Part shown: positions 2,504 through 57,010 of the stretch, in pieces
How positions within the stretch are numbered: position 1 is the stretch's first letter
Layout: each line of letters begins with the position of its first letter
Translations under genes and position numbers: made by a program
Assembly: GCA_045648605.1 (NCBI GenBank)
Contig: JAZROG010000056.1
Span: 2,392-66,391, forward strand
Source of the DNA: Eubacteriales bacterium
Lineage (GTDB): Bacteria > Bacillota > Clostridia > Oscillospirales > CAG-272
DNA: 64,000 nt
Reading direction: 5' to 3'
Notes under the pieces: generated by a model
Databases searched by the model: none
What the model was told of the DNA's origin: nothing
Seen by the model: the letters and a program-made list of their open reading frames with translations, nothing else

Positions 2504-3261
2504 ATGAACCAAGCAAATTTAATTAAACACTTTGATTTGATTCTGTTAAAGCACCAAAACATTCATTCAAATGGAACCGAATTGTTTTTTTGAGGCCCTG
2601 CTTTGGGTATGTTACCAAGGGATACGGAAAATTTCTTCACAAGGGAAAAACCTATTTTGCTCGTGAGGGCGACCTTATATATATTGCCACAGGAACAAAA
2701 TATCAATCGGTTTGGTTCGGAGAGCCGGATATCGAATGGTATTCCATAACCTTTGATTTTTCATCAAAAAATGCTTTTTCTTCCTATCAGTTTCAAATTT
2801 TGAAAAATTACTCTACCGAGCTTTTTGAAAAAATGTACGAGGCTTATGAAAATGAGCCGCTGCTTTCCGTTTCATATTTTTATATGCTGCTTAATGATAT
2901 TTTTTCAAAGCTCAAGCAGGTAGAAAAAAATCCTTTACAAAACAAGATCGAAAAGGCCATTGATTATATTGAGCAGAACTGTTCGGAGCAAATTCACATT
3001 GAAAAGCTTGCCAATATGTGCTATATGAGCGAATCGGCTTTTTTCAAGACCTTCAAAAAGGCTACGGGGGTAACTCCTATTGCCTATAAACACAATATCA
3101 TGATCCAAAAGGCAATAGAAATGCTTTCGGGGACATCCGCCTCGATTGAAGAAGTCAGTACCCTTTGCGGCTTTGCTTGTTCAAACTATTTCAGAATAAT
3201 CTTTACCAAACTTACAGGTAAAACACCAAAGGAGATAAGAAAAACATTTATAAATGAATAA
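2504..3261 (+). pseudogene. AraC family transcriptional regulator (cupin plus HTH), with a frameshift in a T7 run
   Basis: The C-terminal AraC HTH is HIEKLANMCYMSESAFFKTFKKATGVTPIAYK. ATG 2504 with SD AGAGGA reads 29 codons and then hits TGA inside T7 (2585-2591). T8 would give ELFFLRPCFGYVTKG, continuous with ORF 2590-3261. Confidence 0.7.
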
Positions 3262-3290
3262 AAAAGTGGCTGAAATCAGCCACTTTTTTA
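3262..3290. terminator. Bidirectional terminator between the convergent araC-like and yebC genes
   Basis: AAAAAGTGGCTGA aa TCAGCCACTTTTTT: a 9-bp stem flanked by an A-run and a T-run. Confidence 0.7.
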
Positions 3291-3293
3291 TTA

Positions 3294-4019
3294 TCAATCG
3301 CAATTTTCGCAGTTGTGGAAAACCTCTTGAACGTCGTCGTTATCCTCAAGGTGCTCAAGGAGAAGATTCATCTTCTTGATATCATCCTCATTATCGAGAG
3401 TAACATAATTTGAGGGGATCATGCTCTCCTCTGCGCTCTCAATGGTATATCCTGCGCCCTCGAGAGCCTCACGAACAGCACCAAGGTCATCGGTCTCGGT
3501 GTAGATCTCGAAAACCTCTTCCTCTGCTACAAAGTCGGATGCGCCCGCTTCAAGTGCAGCTTCCATAAGAGCATCCTCGTCAACATCCTCACGCATGATA
3601 ATGATAACGCCCTTTTCCTCGAACATATAGCTAACACAGCCTGTCTGACCAAGATTTCCACCAAATTTATCAAAATAATGGCGAACCTCGGAGGCAGTTC
3701 TGTTTCTGTTATCGGTAGTTGTGTTTACAATAACTGCAACGCCTGCGGGGCCATAGCCCTCATAGCGAAGCTCCTCGTAATCAACATCTGTCTGACCTGC
3801 CGCCTTCTTGATCGTTCTCTCAATATTATCGTTGGGAACGTTATTTGCCTTTGCCTTTGCGATAAGGTCGCGGAGCTTTGAGTTAGAAGCCGGATCGGGA
3901 CCACCTGCCTTGATGGCGATTATCATTTCCTTACCGATCTTTGTAAAAATTTTCGCCTTTTGGGCATCGGTCTTTTCTTTTTTATGCTTGATATTATTCC
4001 ATTTACTATGTCCTGACAT
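3294..4019 (-). CDS. yebC: YebC/PmpR family DNA-binding transcriptional regulator
   Basis: 241 aa starting MSGHSKWNNIKHKKEKTDAQKAKIFTKIGKE, the canonical YebC N-terminus. The ORF is full length. Confidence 0.9.
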   Translation of the reverse strand: MSGHSKWNNIKHKKEKTDAQKAKIFTKIGKEMIIAIKAGGPDPASNSKLRDLIAKAKANNVPNDNIERTIKKAAGQTDVDYEELRYEGYGPAGVAVIVNTTTDNRNRTASEVRHYFDKFGGNLGQTGCVSYMFEEKGVIIIMREDVDEDALMEAALEAGASDFVAEEEVFEIYTETDDLGAVREALEGAGYTIESAEESMIPSNYVTLDNEDDIKKMNLLLEHLEDNDDVQEVFHNCENCD

Positions 4020-52638: not shown

Positions 52639-53392
52639 GCTATACAATTATCTGAATGATGCCATCCCCGCTTCCCTTTCCTGCGATTGGGATAATGACG
52701 GACTTATGTGCTCGGGCGATACCGAAAAAGAGGTAAAAAAAGTGCTCATTGCCCTTGATATCACCGAAAAGGTCGTAGATAAGGCAGCAAACGAGGGTTT
52801 TGATGCTATAATTTCCCACCACCCTATGATATTCAAGAAGATAGGTGCTGTTGAGCCATCGGTTGCAAGCGCAAAAAAGGCAATTACTCTGATAAAAAAC
52901 GATATTTCCGCAATGTCCTTTCACACAAGACTCGATGCACTCACAGGCGGTGTAAACGATGTTCTCTGCAAGAAGATAGGACTTAATAATGCTTCTGCAT
53001 TTGGCTCAGACGGCGAGAAAATGGGCAGGATCGGCACACTCGATGCGCCAATAGAAATTGAAGCCTTTTGTGAAATTCTGAAAAATGTACTCGGTGCACC
53101 TTTTGTTCTTGCTTCCTCTTGCGGAAAAAAGGTACACAGGGTCGCGCTTCTTGGCGGTGACGGCAAGGATTTTGTCGGTGACGTAATAATGAGCGGAGCT
53201 GATACCTTCCTTAGCGGAAGAATAAGCTACAACATAATGGTTGATGCTCCCGAAATGGGAATAAATCTCATCGAAGCCGGTCATTATTTCACAGAAGCTC
53301 CCGTATGCGAATTTCTTGCGGAGCTTGTAAAAAAAGCAGACTGCAAAATAGAAACCGAAATGTTTAATTCAAACGAAATAAAGGTCATATAA
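52625..53392 (+). CDS. Nif3-like dinuclear metal centre protein
   Basis: DWDNDGL, ISHHPMIF, SFHTRLD and EAGHYFTE motifs. Confidence 0.88.
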   Translation: MKTIELYNYLNDAIPASLSCDWDNDGLMCSGDTEKEVKKVLIALDITEKVVDKAANEGFDAIISHHPMIFKKIGAVEPSVASAKKAITLIKNDISAMSFHTRLDALTGGVNDVLCKKIGLNNASAFGSDGEKMGRIGTLDAPIEIEAFCEILKNVLGAPFVLASSCGKKVHRVALLGGDGKDFVGDVIMSGADTFLSGRISYNIMVDAPEMGINLIEAGHYFTEAPVCEFLAELVKKADCKIETEMFNSNEIKVI

Positions 53393-54783
53393 TGAAAAAT
53401 CAAAATCTTAAGAAGGACGATATCCTTACCGTCCGAATAAATGAGATAAATAATCTTGGAAGCGGCGTTGGAAAGCTTGATGATGGGTGCGTTATATTCA
53501 TAAACGGCGCGGTGACGGGTGAGCTTGTACGTGCAAAGCTTATCAAGGTAAATAAAAGCTTTTGCGTAGGAAGACTTGAAGAAATAATCGAGCCTTCGCC
53601 GTATAGGGAAAATTCCTTCTGCAATGCCCCTCTCTCCTGTGGCGGATGCGTTTATCGCCATGTAAAAAGAGAGCACGAGCTTGAGCTGAAAAAGAGCTAT
53701 GTTGAGCATTCCTTCATAAAAGTGGGGCTTTCCGATGTCAAGGTAAATGACGTTCTTTGTCTCCCCGAAAGGTCGGGATACCGAAACAAGGCGCAGTATC
53801 CTATCGGAATGAGCAAAAACGGCGTTACCGCAGGCTTTTATGCCTCAAAAACTCACAAGATTATTCCCTCCCTTGATTGCGCGCTGCAGCCGAGGATCTT
53901 TTGCGAAATCCTTTCTTTTTTCTGTGATTTTGCAACAAAAAAAGGAATAAGCGTCTATGACGAGGAAAGCGGAAGAGGACTTCTCCGCCATCTTTATCTG
54001 CGGTATGGAAAAAACACCGATGAGGTAATGGTCTGTATCGTTATAAACGGCTCTTCCCTGCCTTTTTCGGATGAATTTTGCAAAGTGCTTTGCGAAAAAT
54101 TCCCATCTGTTAAAAGCATAATGCTTAATATAAACGAAAAAAACACCAATGTTGTGCTTGGAGAAAAATATATCACTCTTTTTGGCAAGTCTTATATAAC
54201 AGATGTGCTTTGCGGAAAGAAATTCAATATCTCTCCCGGCTCATTTTATCAGGTGAATCACGATTGCGCAGAGCTTCTTTATGAAACAGCCGCGTCTCTC
54301 GGTGGCTTTACAGGCAAAGAAACAGTCCTTGACCTCTACTGCGGAATAGGAACCATCGGTCTTTCCATTGCGGATAAGGTGGGCGAGGTGATTGGCATTG
54401 AGATCGTACCTGAAGCTGTGGAATGTGCAAAGGAAAACGCAAGAATAAACGGAATTGAAAATGCCAAGTTCTACTGCGGAGACACTTCCTCTGCCGAAAA
54501 GCTCCTTGAAAACGCTTCAAAAGTAAGAGGAACGCTTAAGCCCGATGCGGTCATAATCGATCCACCGAGAAAAGGAAGCACACCCGAGCTTATAAACTAT
54601 CTTGCAAAGCTCGATGTGCCGAAAATCATCTATATTTCCTGCGACCCCGATACACTTGCAAGAGATTGTGTGATTTTTAGAGAATTGGGCTATTCAATAG
54701 GCACTGTTACTCCCGTTGATATGTTCCCCGCCACAGGGCATTGCGAAGCTGTTGTACAGCTTCGCCGCGATATAAATCCCTAA
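53392..54783 (+). CDS. 23S rRNA (uracil-C5)-methyltransferase, RlmD/RumA type (TRAM, Fe-S Cys cluster, SAM MTase)
   Basis: TRAM N-terminus (LTVRINEINNLGSGVGKL), Cys cluster CNAPLSCGGCVYRH, and DLYCGIGTIGL, DPPRKG, YISCDP. Confidence 0.88.
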   Translation: MKNQNLKKDDILTVRINEINNLGSGVGKLDDGCVIFINGAVTGELVRAKLIKVNKSFCVGRLEEIIEPSPYRENSFCNAPLSCGGCVYRHVKREHELELKKSYVEHSFIKVGLSDVKVNDVLCLPERSGYRNKAQYPIGMSKNGVTAGFYASKTHKIIPSLDCALQPRIFCEILSFFCDFATKKGISVYDEESGRGLLRHLYLRYGKNTDEVMVCIVINGSSLPFSDEFCKVLCEKFPSVKSIMLNINEKNTNVVLGEKYITLFGKSYITDVLCGKKFNISPGSFYQVNHDCAELLYETAASLGGFTGKETVLDLYCGIGTIGLSIADKVGEVIGIEIVPEAVECAKENARINGIENAKFYCGDTSSAEKLLENASKVRGTLKPDAVIIDPPRKGSTPELINYLAKLDVPKIIYISCDPDTLARDCVIFRELGYSIGTVTPVDMFPATGHCEAVVQLRRDINP

Positions 54784-54788
54784 AGTGA

Positions 54789-54942
54789 TTTGCGATATAC
54801 GCCTTGCGGCGTGCGATATACCATGGTGCGATATGCACTGCGGTGCGCATAAAGGGATTTATATCATATCGCAACCGAGCAAAGTGAGGTTATATCGCAT
54901 TTGAATAAATATATCGCACGAGCAAAGCGAGTATATCGCAAA
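54789..54942. repeat. Nested inverted-repeat array built from the octamer TGCGATAT (3 forward, 4 reverse copies)
   Basis: Forward copies start at 54791, 54812 and 54827. Reverse copies (ATATCGCA) start at 54866, 54892, 54911 and 54933. Nested arms are 54789-800/54931-42 (12 bp), 54810-20/54910-20 (11 bp) and 54827-35/54865-73 (9 bp). Confidence 0.85.
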
Positions 54943-54954
54943 GGAGACATTAAA

Positions 54955-55302
54955 ATGAATGATAAAACAATAAAAGAATTGGCAGTTGAGTTAACGGTTG
55001 AAACAACAGCAATATGTGATAATATTAAAGGGAGAAATGTTTTTGTTAATCAATTATTACGCTCATGCTCTTCAATTGGAGCAAATACACATGAAGCTAA
55101 ATATGCACAAAGCAAAGCAGATTTTATCAGCAAAATGGAAATAGCTCTTAAAGAGTGTTATGAAACGGAATATTGGCTCGAAATACTTTTCAAAGTTAAT
55201 GCACTTTACGCGATAACATATAAATCCTTGACAAACAAATGCGGAACTATAAGAAGAAAACTTATTGCATCTATTACGACTGCAAAAAATAAAAATGAAT
55301 AG
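54955..55302 (+). CDS. Four-helix-bundle protein (23S rRNA-intervening-sequence protein / Avd-like family)
   Basis: 115 aa with VNQLLRSCSSIGANTHEAKYAQSKADFISKMEIALKECYETEYWLEIL, the family signature. AAGGAG SD lies 8 nt upstream of ATG 54955. Confidence 0.8.
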   Translation: MNDKTIKELAVELTVETTAICDNIKGRNVFVNQLLRSCSSIGANTHEAKYAQSKADFISKMEIALKECYETEYWLEILFKVNALYAITYKSLTNKCGTIRRKLIASITTAKNKNE

Positions 55303-55879
55303 TATCATAAAAAAAGAAAAAGGCGACATAATTTCAAACATTATTGAAATGCTTATTGATGATGATAAAAGTTCAGCAAAATCAATAATTATAAAAGAAT
55401 ATCCGCATATTACTTATGATGTAGAAAAACGTAGATATACTATAGCTCAAAAAATGGAACAATTTATAAGAGATGGATTTATTGACAGATATACAGGGCA
55501 AAAACTTTTAAATCCGGGCATTCTTAAAATATTATCAACATATTTTCCTAATGAATTTCCTTTCCACCATCATTGGAAGATGTCAGAAACACACATTGCA
55601 TATTGGGAATTGATTCCTACCATTGACCATATATATCCCATTGCCAGGGGTGGAAATGAAGATAAAAACAATTGGGTTACAACTTCTATGAAAAACAATT
55701 CTATTAAAAGCAACTATACAATAGAAGAAATACATTGGACACTATATCCTCAAGGCAATATAAAAGATTGGGATGGCTTGTCAAAATCTCTTATAAAATT
55801 GGTTGATAACAATAAAGACCTTTTAAAAGATAGCTACATAAAGGCTTGGTACACCATTTCGAAAAAACTACTAAAATAA
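55295..55879 (+). CDS. HNH endonuclease-domain protein (Cys-less variant)
   Basis: 194 aa with DRYTGQKL...IDHIYPIARGGNEDKNNWVTTSMKNNSIKSN. ATG 55295 overlaps the upstream stop by 8 nt (ATGAATAG). Confidence 0.7.
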   Translation: MNSIIKKEKGDIISNIIEMLIDDDKSSAKSIIIKEYPHITYDVEKRRYTIAQKMEQFIRDGFIDRYTGQKLLNPGILKILSTYFPNEFPFHHHWKMSETHIAYWELIPTIDHIYPIARGGNEDKNNWVTTSMKNNSIKSNYTIEEIHWTLYPQGNIKDWDGLSKSLIKLVDNNKDLLKDSYIKAWYTISKKLLK

Positions 55880-55941
55880 TATTATCACACATTCAACACA
55901 AAAATTTCGAAGCTATTATCTTAGGTATAAAGGAACACACT

Positions 55942-56616
55942 ATGAAAAAGAAAATATATATCATCCTCACCGTTATGATTTTTGCCATCGCGGTATGCTT
56001 TATTGATGCGGTGATACATCCGAACTATTTTGTAAAAATACCAATAAAGATACTTTTCTTCCTCGCACTTCCATTGCTTTTCTTCGTAAAAAACAAAGAA
56101 GATTTCGGGGACTTCAAGAAGCTTTTTGTTTTTAAGAAAAAAGGTGTTTTAACCGCGCTACTGCTTGGCATCGGTATTTATGCCGTTATAATCGGCGGGT
56201 ATTTCGTAACAAGAAGCATCATTGATTATTCAAATATAACCACTTCTCTTGGCGACAGCATGGGAATAAATGCCGGGAATTTTCTTTGGGTATCGCTTTA
56301 TATCTCACTTATGAATTCCTTTCTCGAAGAATTTTTCTTCCGCGGATACGGTTTCATGACACTAAAAAAGCACACCTCAAAAAAGGTGGCTTACGTCTTC
56401 AGTTCGGGGATTTTTGCCTTATATCATGTTGGTATGCTTATCGGTATGTTTGATTTCGGTGCCCTTGCCCTGCTCCTTTTCGGGCTTATTATCGGCGGCT
56501 GTATCTTCAATTATTTAAACGAAAAGCTCGATTGCATTTACCCATCATGGTTTGTACATATGTTCGCAAATTTTGCCATCAATACCGTCGGCTTCATCCT
56601 TTTTGGTATCATTTAA
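55942..56616 (+). CDS. CPBP family intramembrane glutamic endopeptidase (Abi/CAAX-like)
   Basis: Motifs LEEFFFRGYGF, FALYH and HMFANF, with 6-7 TM segments. ATG 55942. Confidence 0.85.
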   Translation: MKKKIYIILTVMIFAIAVCFIDAVIHPNYFVKIPIKILFFLALPLLFFVKNKEDFGDFKKLFVFKKKGVLTALLLGIGIYAVIIGGYFVTRSIIDYSNITTSLGDSMGINAGNFLWVSLYISLMNSFLEEFFFRGYGFMTLKKHTSKKVAYVFSSGIFALYHVGMLIGMFDFGALALLLFGLIIGGCIFNYLNEKLDCIYPSWFVHMFANFAINTVGFILFGII

Positions 56617-56637
56617 GAAGAAGTAAATATTTCGCCC

Positions 56638-56668
56638 AAAAAAGCACTTCTTGCGAAGTGCTTTTTTT
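56638..56668. terminator. Bidirectional terminator shared by the CPBP gene and tRNA-Arg
   Basis: AAAAAA GCACTTC ttgc GAAGTGC TTTTTTT. Confidence 0.75.
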
Positions 56669-56745
56669 GGCCCGCCCAGGGGGATTTGAACCCTCGACCC
56701 ACAGAATCGGAATCTGGTACTCTATCCGGGCTGAGCTATGGGCGG
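56668..56745 (-). tRNA. tRNA-Arg (anticodon CCG), with CCA encoded
   Basis: Hand-folded cloverleaf: acceptor CCGCCCA/TGGGCGG, D-arm GCTC/GAGT, anticodon arm CCAGA-TTCCGAT-TCTGT, T-arm GAGGG-TTCAAAT-CCCCC, discriminator G and CCA. There are two stem mismatches (27-43 and 50-64). Confidence 0.75.
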
Positions 56746-56753
56746 ATGGGTAT

Positions 56754-56782
56754 ATTTTACCATAAAATCATGTTTTTGTAAA
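56754..56782 (-). promoter_or_regulatory. Promoter of tRNA-Arg
   Basis: The minus strand reads TTTACA (56782-77), a 17-nt spacer, then TGG-TAAAAT (56759-54), 8 nt before the tRNA 5' end. Confidence 0.6.
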
Positions 56783-56885
56783 GTCCTTTTTGCGGAATAA
56801 ATACTTAAATTTATGATAATAATAGACAAAGAAAGAGTAAAAAAGCCAAATCAAAAAAATATTTTGAGAAATTTCAAAAAAACTA

Positions 56886-56914
56886 TTGACAAATCATTCC
56901 AAATCTGTTATAAT
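56886..56914 (+). promoter_or_regulatory. Promoter of tRNA-Gln
   Basis: TTGACA (56886-91), a 17-nt spacer, then TATAAT (56909-14), 14 nt before the tRNA 5' end. Confidence 0.7.
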
Positions 56915-56928
56915 ATCTTCCGTTGCGA

Positions 56929-57004
56929 TGGGGCATCGCCAAGCGGTAAGGCAACGGACTCTGACTCCGTCATTACCTAGGTTCGAATCCTAGTGCCCCA
57001 GCCA
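56929..57004 (+). tRNA. tRNA-Gln (anticodon CTG), with CCA encoded
   Basis: Acceptor TGGGGCA/TGCCCCA, anticodon arm ACGGA-CTCTGAC-TCCGT and T-arm CTAGG-TTCGAAT-CCTAG. The backbone is close to the well-known bacterial tRNA-Gln (TGGGGxATCGCCAAGCGGTAAGGCA...). Confidence 0.9.
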
Positions 57005-57010
57005 AAAAAA

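Follow-up and report, generated by a model that had tools for sequence, protein, structure and literature searches.

What is a dense cluster of short inverted repeats doing between the end of a 23S rRNA methyltransferase gene and the Shine-Dalgarno sequence of a small protein gene? The question is raised by an array element of ~200 nt (54743-54939) in a 64,000-nt stretch of DNA from a Eubacteriales bacterium (contig JAZROG010000056.1), which we refer to as the window. Here, the element lies between an rlmD/rumA-like gene and a gene encoding a four-helix-bundle (4HB) protein, itself followed by an HNH endonuclease-like gene. Comparison with related loci shows that the array is physically coupled to the 4HB gene and co-varies with it. 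We tentatively propose that the array is a cis-acting binding platform for its own pentameric 4HB protein, probably operating on hairpin-prone DNA, gating the 4HB and HNH genes, and travelling in a mobile cassette.

Heptamers, hairpins and the four-helix-bundle gene

The octamer TGCGATAT, which drew attention to the locus in an initial annotation, occurs 11 times in the window, against 3.1 copies expected and a maximum of seven in shuffled versions of it. Seven of these copies fall inside 154 bp, three on the forward strand (54791, 54812 and 54827) and four on the reverse (54866, 54892, 54911 and 54933), just as that annotation had counted and placed them, and a complementarity check confirmed its nested inverted matches of 12, 11 and 9 bp. 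The conserved word itself is the heptamer GCGATAT (ATATCGC in reverse). The reverse copy at 54892 had been considered unpartnered, but a fourth forward heptamer lies at 54767-54773, within the final rumA codons, and the array is therefore a set of four plus four words in which every reverse copy has a partner. Its order is a hairpin (h0), four repeats of GCGATAT plus a hairpin, a centre piece, and four ATATCGC words with hairpins between them (Table 1; F1-F4 and R1-R4 are the forward and reverse words). Because all eight words are identical, the register in which they would pair is ambiguous. Every spacer is a hairpin starting at the base that adjoins a word, with zero linker; where the 12-bp arms match beyond the word, the additional bases close the stems of adjacent hairpins. 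The hairpin nature of all spacers, the fourth word, h0 and the relation to the Gut-1 motif had been missed. The centre piece, AGGGATTTATATC, is complementary to the tail of F1 and the 5′ arm of h1 (54769-81). RNA folding of the element gave z-scores against shuffles of -5.0 for the plus strand and -6.7 for the minus strand. We found no other arrays or 4HB paralogues elsewhere in the window.

Other copies, which the initial annotation had suggested looking for, are plentiful. A scan of one genome per species for a pair of forward words with a reverse word after them returned at least 120 related loci among the matches listed, nearly all in metagenome-assembled genomes (MAGs) of gut and rumen Clostridia. 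The carriers belong to Acutalibacteraceae, Oscillospiraceae, Christensenellaceae and 'Eubacteriales', and a single MAG may have as many as four or five loci. We oriented 98 elements on the centre motif, 28 of which have exactly four plus four exact words; among the family elements, the word is exact in 325 of 384 forward and 333 of 376 reverse copies. Spacers pair from their first base, with 94% Watson-Crick pairs on the F side, and 78% Watson-Crick plus 15% G.A pairs on the R side. All 269 G.A pairs in the family are on the R side, and in the window they occur as tandem G.A/A.G pairs in hairpins h5 and h7. All full copies, and other word classes too, show co-variation between the centre piece and h1, and h0 ends no more than 3 nt from F1 in 70 of 82 family members. 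In viral sequences, a search for three direct copies gave 36 loci, all of them ordinary tandem repeats in one orientation and unrelated to the element.

The gene most closely tied to these arrays is the 4HB gene (individual loci are given L numbers below). Between the window and related loci, blastn homology extends from F1 to the 4HB stop codon (~535 bp, 70-78% identity), excluding HNH. About a quarter of the GCGATAT arrays listed have a 4HB orthologue (72-85% identity) 12-21 nt downstream, and the gap from R4 to the ATG is 12-21 nt in 25 of 26 units of this class. Paralogous 4HB genes (44-53% identity) on the same contigs exhibit the same architecture, each with its own different word: GCTAAAT in L099 and L048, a GTGATAT-like word in L087, and CATGATT in L059. 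A metagenome scan with a 4HB alignment added 80 further loci. Where flanks were sufficient, 83 of 92 4HB genes had at least five copies of one heptamer nearby, and the word follows the protein cluster: CGATAT in cluster 3 (28/28), ATGAAAT in cluster 13 (7/7), GCTAAAT in cluster 8 (4/4) and GTGAAAT in cluster 15 (17/21). L241, whose 4HB protein is 68% identical to that of the window, has all eight words jointly changed to TCGATAT/ATATCGA. Words that are uniform within an array yet specific to a clade, with 4HB as the sole conserved gene, form the pattern of a repeat read by a co-evolving factor. The tie to the 4HB gene that had been suspected from the window therefore holds, and of the readings first offered, an array of protein-binding sites is the best supported.

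The arrangement of array and open reading frame (ORF) varies. Both halves precede the ORF (FR-ORF) at 55 of 83 genes; 12 have extra arrays upstream, and FR-ORF-F, FR-ORF-R and R-ORF-F layouts are found at six, four and three genes, respectively. The FR-ORF-F loci L083, L092 and L087 repeat a near-identical F-half, L162 has its ORF between the halves (F-ORF-R), and L168, L059 and L231 are R-ORF-F. An in-frame stop interrupts the conserved GAN.HE motif of the L168 4HB copy (~1095-1442), which lies between an upstream R-half and a downstream F-half and is likely a pseudogene. In L231 (2390-3010), the 4HB gene has four reverse-type words before it and, after it, nine of the forward type whose spacers alternate, a layout that suggests array expansion by unequal exchange between words.

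How might the protein use such an array? The window 4HB protein matches PDB entry 2RLD (E = 7e-21), which holds five chains. A Xanthomonas member of the family, S23p, is a toroidal homopentamer (PMC4990558), and Avd, a protein of the same superfamily, assembles into a positively charged pentamer and binds an RNA element dedicated to it (PMC6182149; bioRxiv 10.1101/2023.10.23.563531). We propose that the eight identical heptamers would be recognition sites of the cassette's own 4HB protein. The zero-linker hairpin spacers would fold out, bringing the words together as 7-bp segments between four-way junctions, either as cruciforms or hairpins in DNA, or as F:R helices in a single strand. Indeed, the geometry is the same at either level: 7-bp word segments separated by perfect four-way junctions. 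In the window, a bound array between rlmD and the 4HB Shine-Dalgarno sequence may gate read-through into the 4HB-HNH operon, a form of autoregulation. In a sister class the array adjoins the -35 box of the 4HB promoter, and solo arrays with an outward promoter could place other genes under 4HB control. From these sequence patterns we infer that 4HB may bind the words, and that binding would gate expression of 4HB-HNH and of promoters beside other copies.

Several points weigh against this proposal. We know of no PF05635 protein that binds DNA sequence-specifically, and Avd binds nucleic acid non-specifically. The co-variation of word and protein could result from co-inheritance combined with repeat homogenisation, and mutated words have no visible compensation in the partner half. 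A plain double-stranded operator does not need palindromic spacers with compensatory changes, nor does it account for strand-specific tandem G.A pairs. For many solo arrays, the 8 kb examined contained no 4HB gene. Further, the window-class array is wholly within the transcript and ends at the Shine-Dalgarno sequence, which fits an RNA leader, and Rfam curators took the related Gut-1 motif as RNA.

Were the proposal correct, Gut-1 and the PF05635/TIGR02436 family would each gain a functional hypothesis, testable with a 115-aa protein and a 200-nt element; the Rfam model would cover only half of the real element, and DNA instead of RNA might be the form in which the motif works. To our knowledge, this S23p/IVS/Avd-like family has been recognised since the 1990s, with a function known only in diversity-generating retroelements (DGRs).

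Table 1. Features of the array and its neighbourhood in the window.
Feature	Position	Strand	Remarks
rlmD/rumA-like 23S rRNA (uracil-5) methyltransferase gene	53392-54783	+	Pfam PF05958 + TRAM; homologues named RlmD
Window-specific cassette	54756-55940	+	h0 3′ arm, array, 4HB, HNH, short tail; 1.2 kb
Hairpin h0	54743-54765	+	5′ arm 54743-52, loop 54753-55, 3′ arm 54756-65; 10/10 complementary
F-half	54767-54846	+	GCGATAT at 54767, 54792, 54813 and 54828, a hairpin after each
h1 (F-half hairpin)	54774-54791
h2 (F-half hairpin)	54799-54812
h3 (F-half hairpin)	54820-54827
h4 (F-half hairpin)	54835-54846
Linker and centre piece	54847-54865	+	AGGGATTTATATC at 54853-65, 13 nt
R-half	54866-54939	+	ATATCGC at 54866, 54892, 54911 and 54933
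h5 (R-half hairpin)	54873-54891
h6 (R-half hairpin)	54899-54910
h7 (R-half hairpin)	54918-54932
Shine-Dalgarno sequence AAGGAG of the 4HB gene	54941-54946	+	R4 ends at 54939, 1 nt between
4HB protein gene	54955-55302	+	PF05635 23S_rRNA_IVP 73.8 bits, TIGR02436 84 bits; ATG at 54955, product 115 aa
HNH endonuclease-like gene	55295-55879	+	Overlaps the 4HB stop

The element as a relative of Gut-1

Is the array a known motif? A scan of the window at Rfam gathering thresholds detected tRNAs only, with no Gut-1 and no rRNA. At a relaxed threshold, the F-half aligned to the full Gut-1 model (RF01706; positions 1-77) with 22.2 bits (E = 0.03), the gathering threshold of that family being 50 bits. Gut-1 has the same design, in which an invariant heptamer stands between three or four short hairpins, and the window segment F1-h1-F2-h2-F3-h3-F4 (54767-54834) has this layout of three heptamer-flanked hairpins. 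Its word, GCGAUAU, differs from the Gut-1 word GUGAAAU, with intermediates such as GUGAUAU in Gut-1 seed members and in L094, where a 63-bit Gut-1 match has the word GTGATAT. Flanks of the published seed alignment include members with a forward half, a centre and a reverse half (GUGAUAU/AUAUCAC), so the Rfam model corresponds to the 5′ half of a larger element. Thus, the window element is a variant of the known but unexplained Gut-1 motif, whose word GUGAAAU marks a sister subfamily.

The association with 4HB extends to that subfamily. At 19 of 20 GTGAAAT loci, a true Gut-1 match (50-90 bits) lies on the 4HB strand and ends 126-170 nt before the 4HB ATG, and at two GTGAAAT loci the reverse half matches the Gut-1 model on the opposite strand. 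The classes differ in position: the array is in the leader in the window class and upstream of the promoter in the Gut-1 class. Gut-1-class units have also been observed just downstream of tRNA gene clusters (L174, L185, L192, L183, L221, L218 and others), where a hairpin flanked by A and T runs, resembling a terminator, stands between the tRNA cluster and the array, in the role of h0.

The discoverers of Gut-1 reported only its occurrence in the human gut and considered it probably a non-coding RNA (PMC2864571, 2010). The Gut-1 literature describes no function, gene association or mobility, and we found no link between Gut-1 and the S23p/Avd-like family in the searchable literature on PF05635, TIGR02436 and Gut-1. 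The HEPN survey paper does not mention the PF05635/TIGR02436 family.

DNA or RNA as the level of action

Does the array then work as RNA, as the naming of Gut-1 implies? A possible, though rather unlikely, alternative is that it is a structured RNA: in the window it would make up the 5′ leader of the 4HB-HNH transcript, and solo and Gut-1 copies would yield separate small RNAs. Its stacked 7-bp F:R helices and side hairpins would control stability or translation, or would form a ribonucleoprotein with the 4HB pentamer, comparable to Avd with DGR RNA or TRAP with the trp leader. Folding speaks for it. RNAalifold on 22 full copies predicted nested F1:R4, F2:R3 and F4:R2 helices together with the local hairpins, with compensatory (two-sided) changes at 13 pairs, hairpin stems among them, while the word helices are invariant within the GCGATAT class. 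This nested fold is the predicted minimum-energy structure (-70 to -100 kcal/mol), and forcing the words to be single-stranded, with hairpins only, is 30-35 kcal/mol worse. A conserved alternative helix of 12-15 bp, pairing F1 and the 5′ arm of h1 with the centre, is 8-26 kcal/mol worse than the nested fold and could act as a switch. In the R-half, tandem G.A pairs and G-N-A/GNRA loops lie on the sense strand. Arrays of the GCGATAT and GCTAAAT classes have a promoter or a gene ahead of h0, and their R4 adjoins the Shine-Dalgarno sequence. The RNA label given by the discoverers of Gut-1 (PMC2864571) and the Avd-binding RNA element (bioRxiv 10.1101/2023.10.23.563531) are precedents in its favour.

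Other observations speak against an RNA. GTGAAAT-class arrays come after a hairpin with a T-run that resembles a terminator, and before a TTGAAA/TTGGCA-N17-TATAAT promoter whose -35 box adjoins R4; this places the array, between intrinsic terminator and promoter, outside the 4HB mRNA. The gap to the ATG is 50-53 nt at 14 of 19 loci of this class, 11 of 19 having a promoter-like site in it. On the sense strand, F-half loops are T-N-C (30/48 in the GCGATAT class, 27/29 in the GTGAAAT class) and R-half loops are G/A-N-A (39/50 and 34/44, respectively). The loop type therefore flips at the centre in both classes, with the two halves alike when read outward from it, and the F-half loops, U-N-C in a sense transcript, are RNA-like only on the opposite strand. 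G.U and A.C mismatches counted on one strand are equally common (52 vs 51); with strands set per half, G.T and A.C counts become 63 vs 40, leaning the same way as the loops, although related copies are not independent. Thirteen units have a canonical promoter whose -10 box ends one base inside the 5′ arm of h0; this hairpin overlaps both the -10 and the transcription start, and an RNA starting ~7 nt after the -10 would lack that arm. Predicted folds leave the Shine-Dalgarno sequence unsequestered, and eight identical words with an ambiguous register would be odd for a defined fold. The interrupted RNA hairpin that had been suggested for the window is the predicted minimum-energy fold, but it leaves the Shine-Dalgarno sequence free, and the sister-class array is outside the mRNA.

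Loop types, promoter position, mismatch counts and the overlap of h0 with the -10 box together lead us to lean towards a DNA-level, hairpin- or cruciform-prone site, and we give DNA only a slight preference over RNA as the level of action. C-G-closed G-N-A triloops and tandem G.A pairs are classic features of stable DNA hairpins. Such features in the array's loops and G.A pairs also suit a further alternative, which we consider very improbable: a site for recombination or priming on single-stranded DNA, comparable to attC, an HUH end or ssi (single-strand initiation). It would serve in replication or transfer, its hairpins being the structure that is recognised, and would be linked to 4HB by proximity alone. 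The strand flip would fit strands exposed as DNA opens outward from the AT-rich centre, and the junction at h0, described below, looks like a fold-back product. Such a site would, however, leave unaccounted for both the change of word with 4HB clade and the fixed position beside the 4HB promoter or Shine-Dalgarno sequence. Further, the neighbourhood contains no integron integrase, HUH or Rep gene, and, specifically for attC, the array sequence has no GTTRRRY core and the cassette no integrase.

Four candidate features of the array itself were rejected. Compensation between mutated words and their partners is not consistent (GTGATAT and ACGATAT against ATATCAC and ATATCGT). Kissing loops between halves are complementary as classes but unmatched within one element; in the window, TTGC and TGCG face AAA, GAAT and AAA. 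A divergent promoter at the centre amounts to a weak extended -10 on the minus strand only, with no -35. Finally, a likeness between F1-h1 and the part of 23S rRNA that RumA targets came down to a chance-level 7-mer, and h1 differs in other classes.

The binding-platform proposal can be compared with operator and iteron arrays, which likewise set identical short words in two inverted sets beside a promoter and co-vary with a linked protein. The present array differs in its 7-bp words, irregular 15-26 bp spacing, hairpin spacers and strand-specific features, and an iteron-type origin is not indicated: it has no Rep gene, no origin context and no 17-22 bp direct repeats, its 7-bp words lying in two inverted sets. 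Nor is it a CRISPR array or a terminator, as had been stated at the outset. Downstream of solo GCGATAT arrays lies a conserved promoter-like motif, and arrays with different words can be stacked in tandem (GCTAAAT then GCGATAT, or AATCATG then GCGATAT), as in L154 (1800-2230), L128 (4100-4340) and L067 (4308-4625). Each stacked array is followed by the conserved promoter-like motif TTGGCATC(TAAAT/CAGAT)...TATAAT.

Insertion at rumA and the neighbouring genes

How did the array come to lie at the end of rumA? Close relatives (L237-L240) have RumA proteins 87-89% identical to that of the window and the same synteny (DUF1858-TrmK-NIF3-RumA ... EamA-sigma), but no array, 4HB, HNH or h0. In blastn comparisons with them, homology stops at 54741-55 and resumes at 55941. 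Identity within rumA is even (~80-90%) up to the loop of h0, and the 5′ arm of h0 therefore consists of native codons (C-E-A-V), whereas its 3′ arm is non-native and an exact reverse complement of the 5′ arm. The final ~28 nt of the rlmD/rumA gene come from the inserted element.

This arrangement is recurrent. At no fewer than nine of 21 array-4HB genome loci, and at several metagenome loci, a rumA homologue (32-50% identity) is directly upstream, and h0 is built there from the host's own H-x-E-x-V-V codons, its loop starting 14-21 nt after the His codon. In L241, RumA is 39% identical while the R-half, 4HB and HNH (window 54856-55914) are 77% identical as DNA, and h0 matches its own host. Further, in L122 and L135 a coding change from AA to VV is compensated in the 3′ arm of h0. 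From these comparisons we conclude that the cassette is mobile and lands repeatedly at the 3′ end of rumA, and that insertion there leaves a host-matched hairpin h0. We know of no textbook mechanism for such a junction; candidates for generating an inverted target copy include fold-back priming after a break and template switching at a quasi-palindrome. Besides rumA, insertion recurs at a gene end encoding ...PETYEM*, after which units of the GCGATAT and CATGATT classes are inserted in L112 and L059.

Mobility invites comparison with DNA transposons. On this explanation, which we regard as unlikely, the array would be the back-to-back ends of a transposon (resembling a miniature inverted-repeat transposable element, MITE, or a foldback element), with four subterminal sites per end for a mobility protein acting in trans or for 4HB itself, so that 4HB would be either cargo or the element's own factor. 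Arrays are multi-copy and palindromic, with dyad symmetry down to loop orientation; solo copies, tandem stacks of units with different words, and variant layouts such as F-ORF-R (L162), R-ORF-F (L168, L059 and L231) and FR-ORF-F (L083, L092 and L087) all exist. The insertion is recent and recurrent at one site, and the inverted target copy at the junction suggests a hairpin or fold-back intermediate. Yet we detected no target-site duplication at the window junctions or elsewhere, only the inverted 10-nt target copy, and the element has no transposase, integrase or Rep gene conserved alongside it. A 13-bp repeat in L154, considered as a target-site duplication, proved to be part of a duplicated promoter module. 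The boundaries of homology are F1 and the 4HB stop rather than the array ends; candidate terminal inverted repeats exist in the form of the inverted words, which are also repeated internally. Moreover, both halves are on one side of the gene in the commonest layout (55/83) and they differ in their hairpin sets, with tandem G.A pairs in one half only.

Like MITEs, foldback elements and REP/BIME sequences (repetitive extragenic palindromes and bacterial interspersed mosaic elements), the arrays are short, non-coding, multi-copy and palindromic, lie between genes or at gene ends, and can carry promoters. They differ in having no target-site duplication and no matching transposase or RAYT, and in having position-specific hairpins with invariant heptamers between them, tied to one small gene. 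The MITE suggested by the initial annotation survives only as a multi-copy, palindromic mobile element: its supposed 12-bp termini are internal words, and the left end is further upstream. The empty sites it had proposed to seek in relatives exist, but no target-site duplication was seen.

Another parallel is the intervening sequence (IVS) of 23S rRNA with its S23p ORF, known from Coxiella and Leptospira, with which the cassette shares a PF05635 ORF and selfish-element status (PMC4990558). The Coxiella IVS has tandem heptamers, GACAGAT, just upstream of the S23p ORF (PMC4990558), and an IVS combines inverted repeats with an ORF, as does L162 with its ORF between the halves. In contrast, the IVS is inside a 23S rRNA helix and the window element is between rlmD and the HNH gene, with no rRNA match in the window. 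IVS repeats flank the ORF as a 28-bp stem, whereas both halves in the window are upstream, comprising eight words plus hairpins; an ORF flanked by both halves is found only in the relatives L162, L168, L059 and L231. RNase III processing is not implied for the window element. With DGRs, the cassette shares a positively charged pentameric four-helix-bundle protein of the same superfamily that, in their case, binds a structured nucleic-acid element beside its gene (PMC6182149; bioRxiv 10.1101/2023.10.23.563531). The DGR spacer RNA, however, is architecturally unrelated to the array, and there is no reverse transcriptase or template/variable repeat beside the window cassette, whose neighbours are RumA, HNH, a CPBP protease, tRNAs and EamA; the rest of the window was not screened for reverse transcriptases.

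It is conceivable, though doubtful, that array and 4HB form an unrecognised selfish 'IVS-like cassette' that spreads between distant Clostridia with no canonical transposase or integrase. A 4HB pentamer bound to both inverted sets and a fold-back intermediate would copy 10-15 nt of target in inverted form, with rlmD 3′ ends as sites for one class and tRNA clusters for the Gut-1 class, and solo arrays with outward promoters would rewire neighbouring genes.

The HNH gene has a history of its own. In the window, the 4HB-HNH stretch has a GC content of 26-32%, vs 42-48% nearby, and a CPBP protease gene and then two tRNAs lie downstream of HNH. We dismissed HNH as a general mobility enzyme, since it is absent from at least 120 genome loci and linked to the cassette only in the window and L241, where it again follows rumA-array-4HB (3001-3615). 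PADLOC returned no match for 4HB, HNH or CPBP, no cassette gene matched a transposase, and exact-sequence look-ups of the window 4HB, RumA and HNH proteins and of P0121 returned no record. P0121, on a 92.6-kb NCBI contig, is 100% identical to the window HNH protein, which has 947 homologues at 66-83% identity. In L243-L246, the HNH gene is solo and adjoins a tyrosine-integrase gene.

The region downstream of rumA (54784-56650) is a variable hotspot among L237, L239 and L240. L237 has a GDSL-lipase-like gene there, its CPBP gene persisting only as remnants; L239 has a DNA methylase gene and a ribbon-helix-helix (RHH) gene on the other strand; and L240 has a 96-aa ORF together with CPBP and GDSL genes. 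The adjacent tRNA-Arg(ccg)/tRNA-Gln(ctg) segment (window 56662-57009) is inverted in L237 (6695-6348), at 91% identity.

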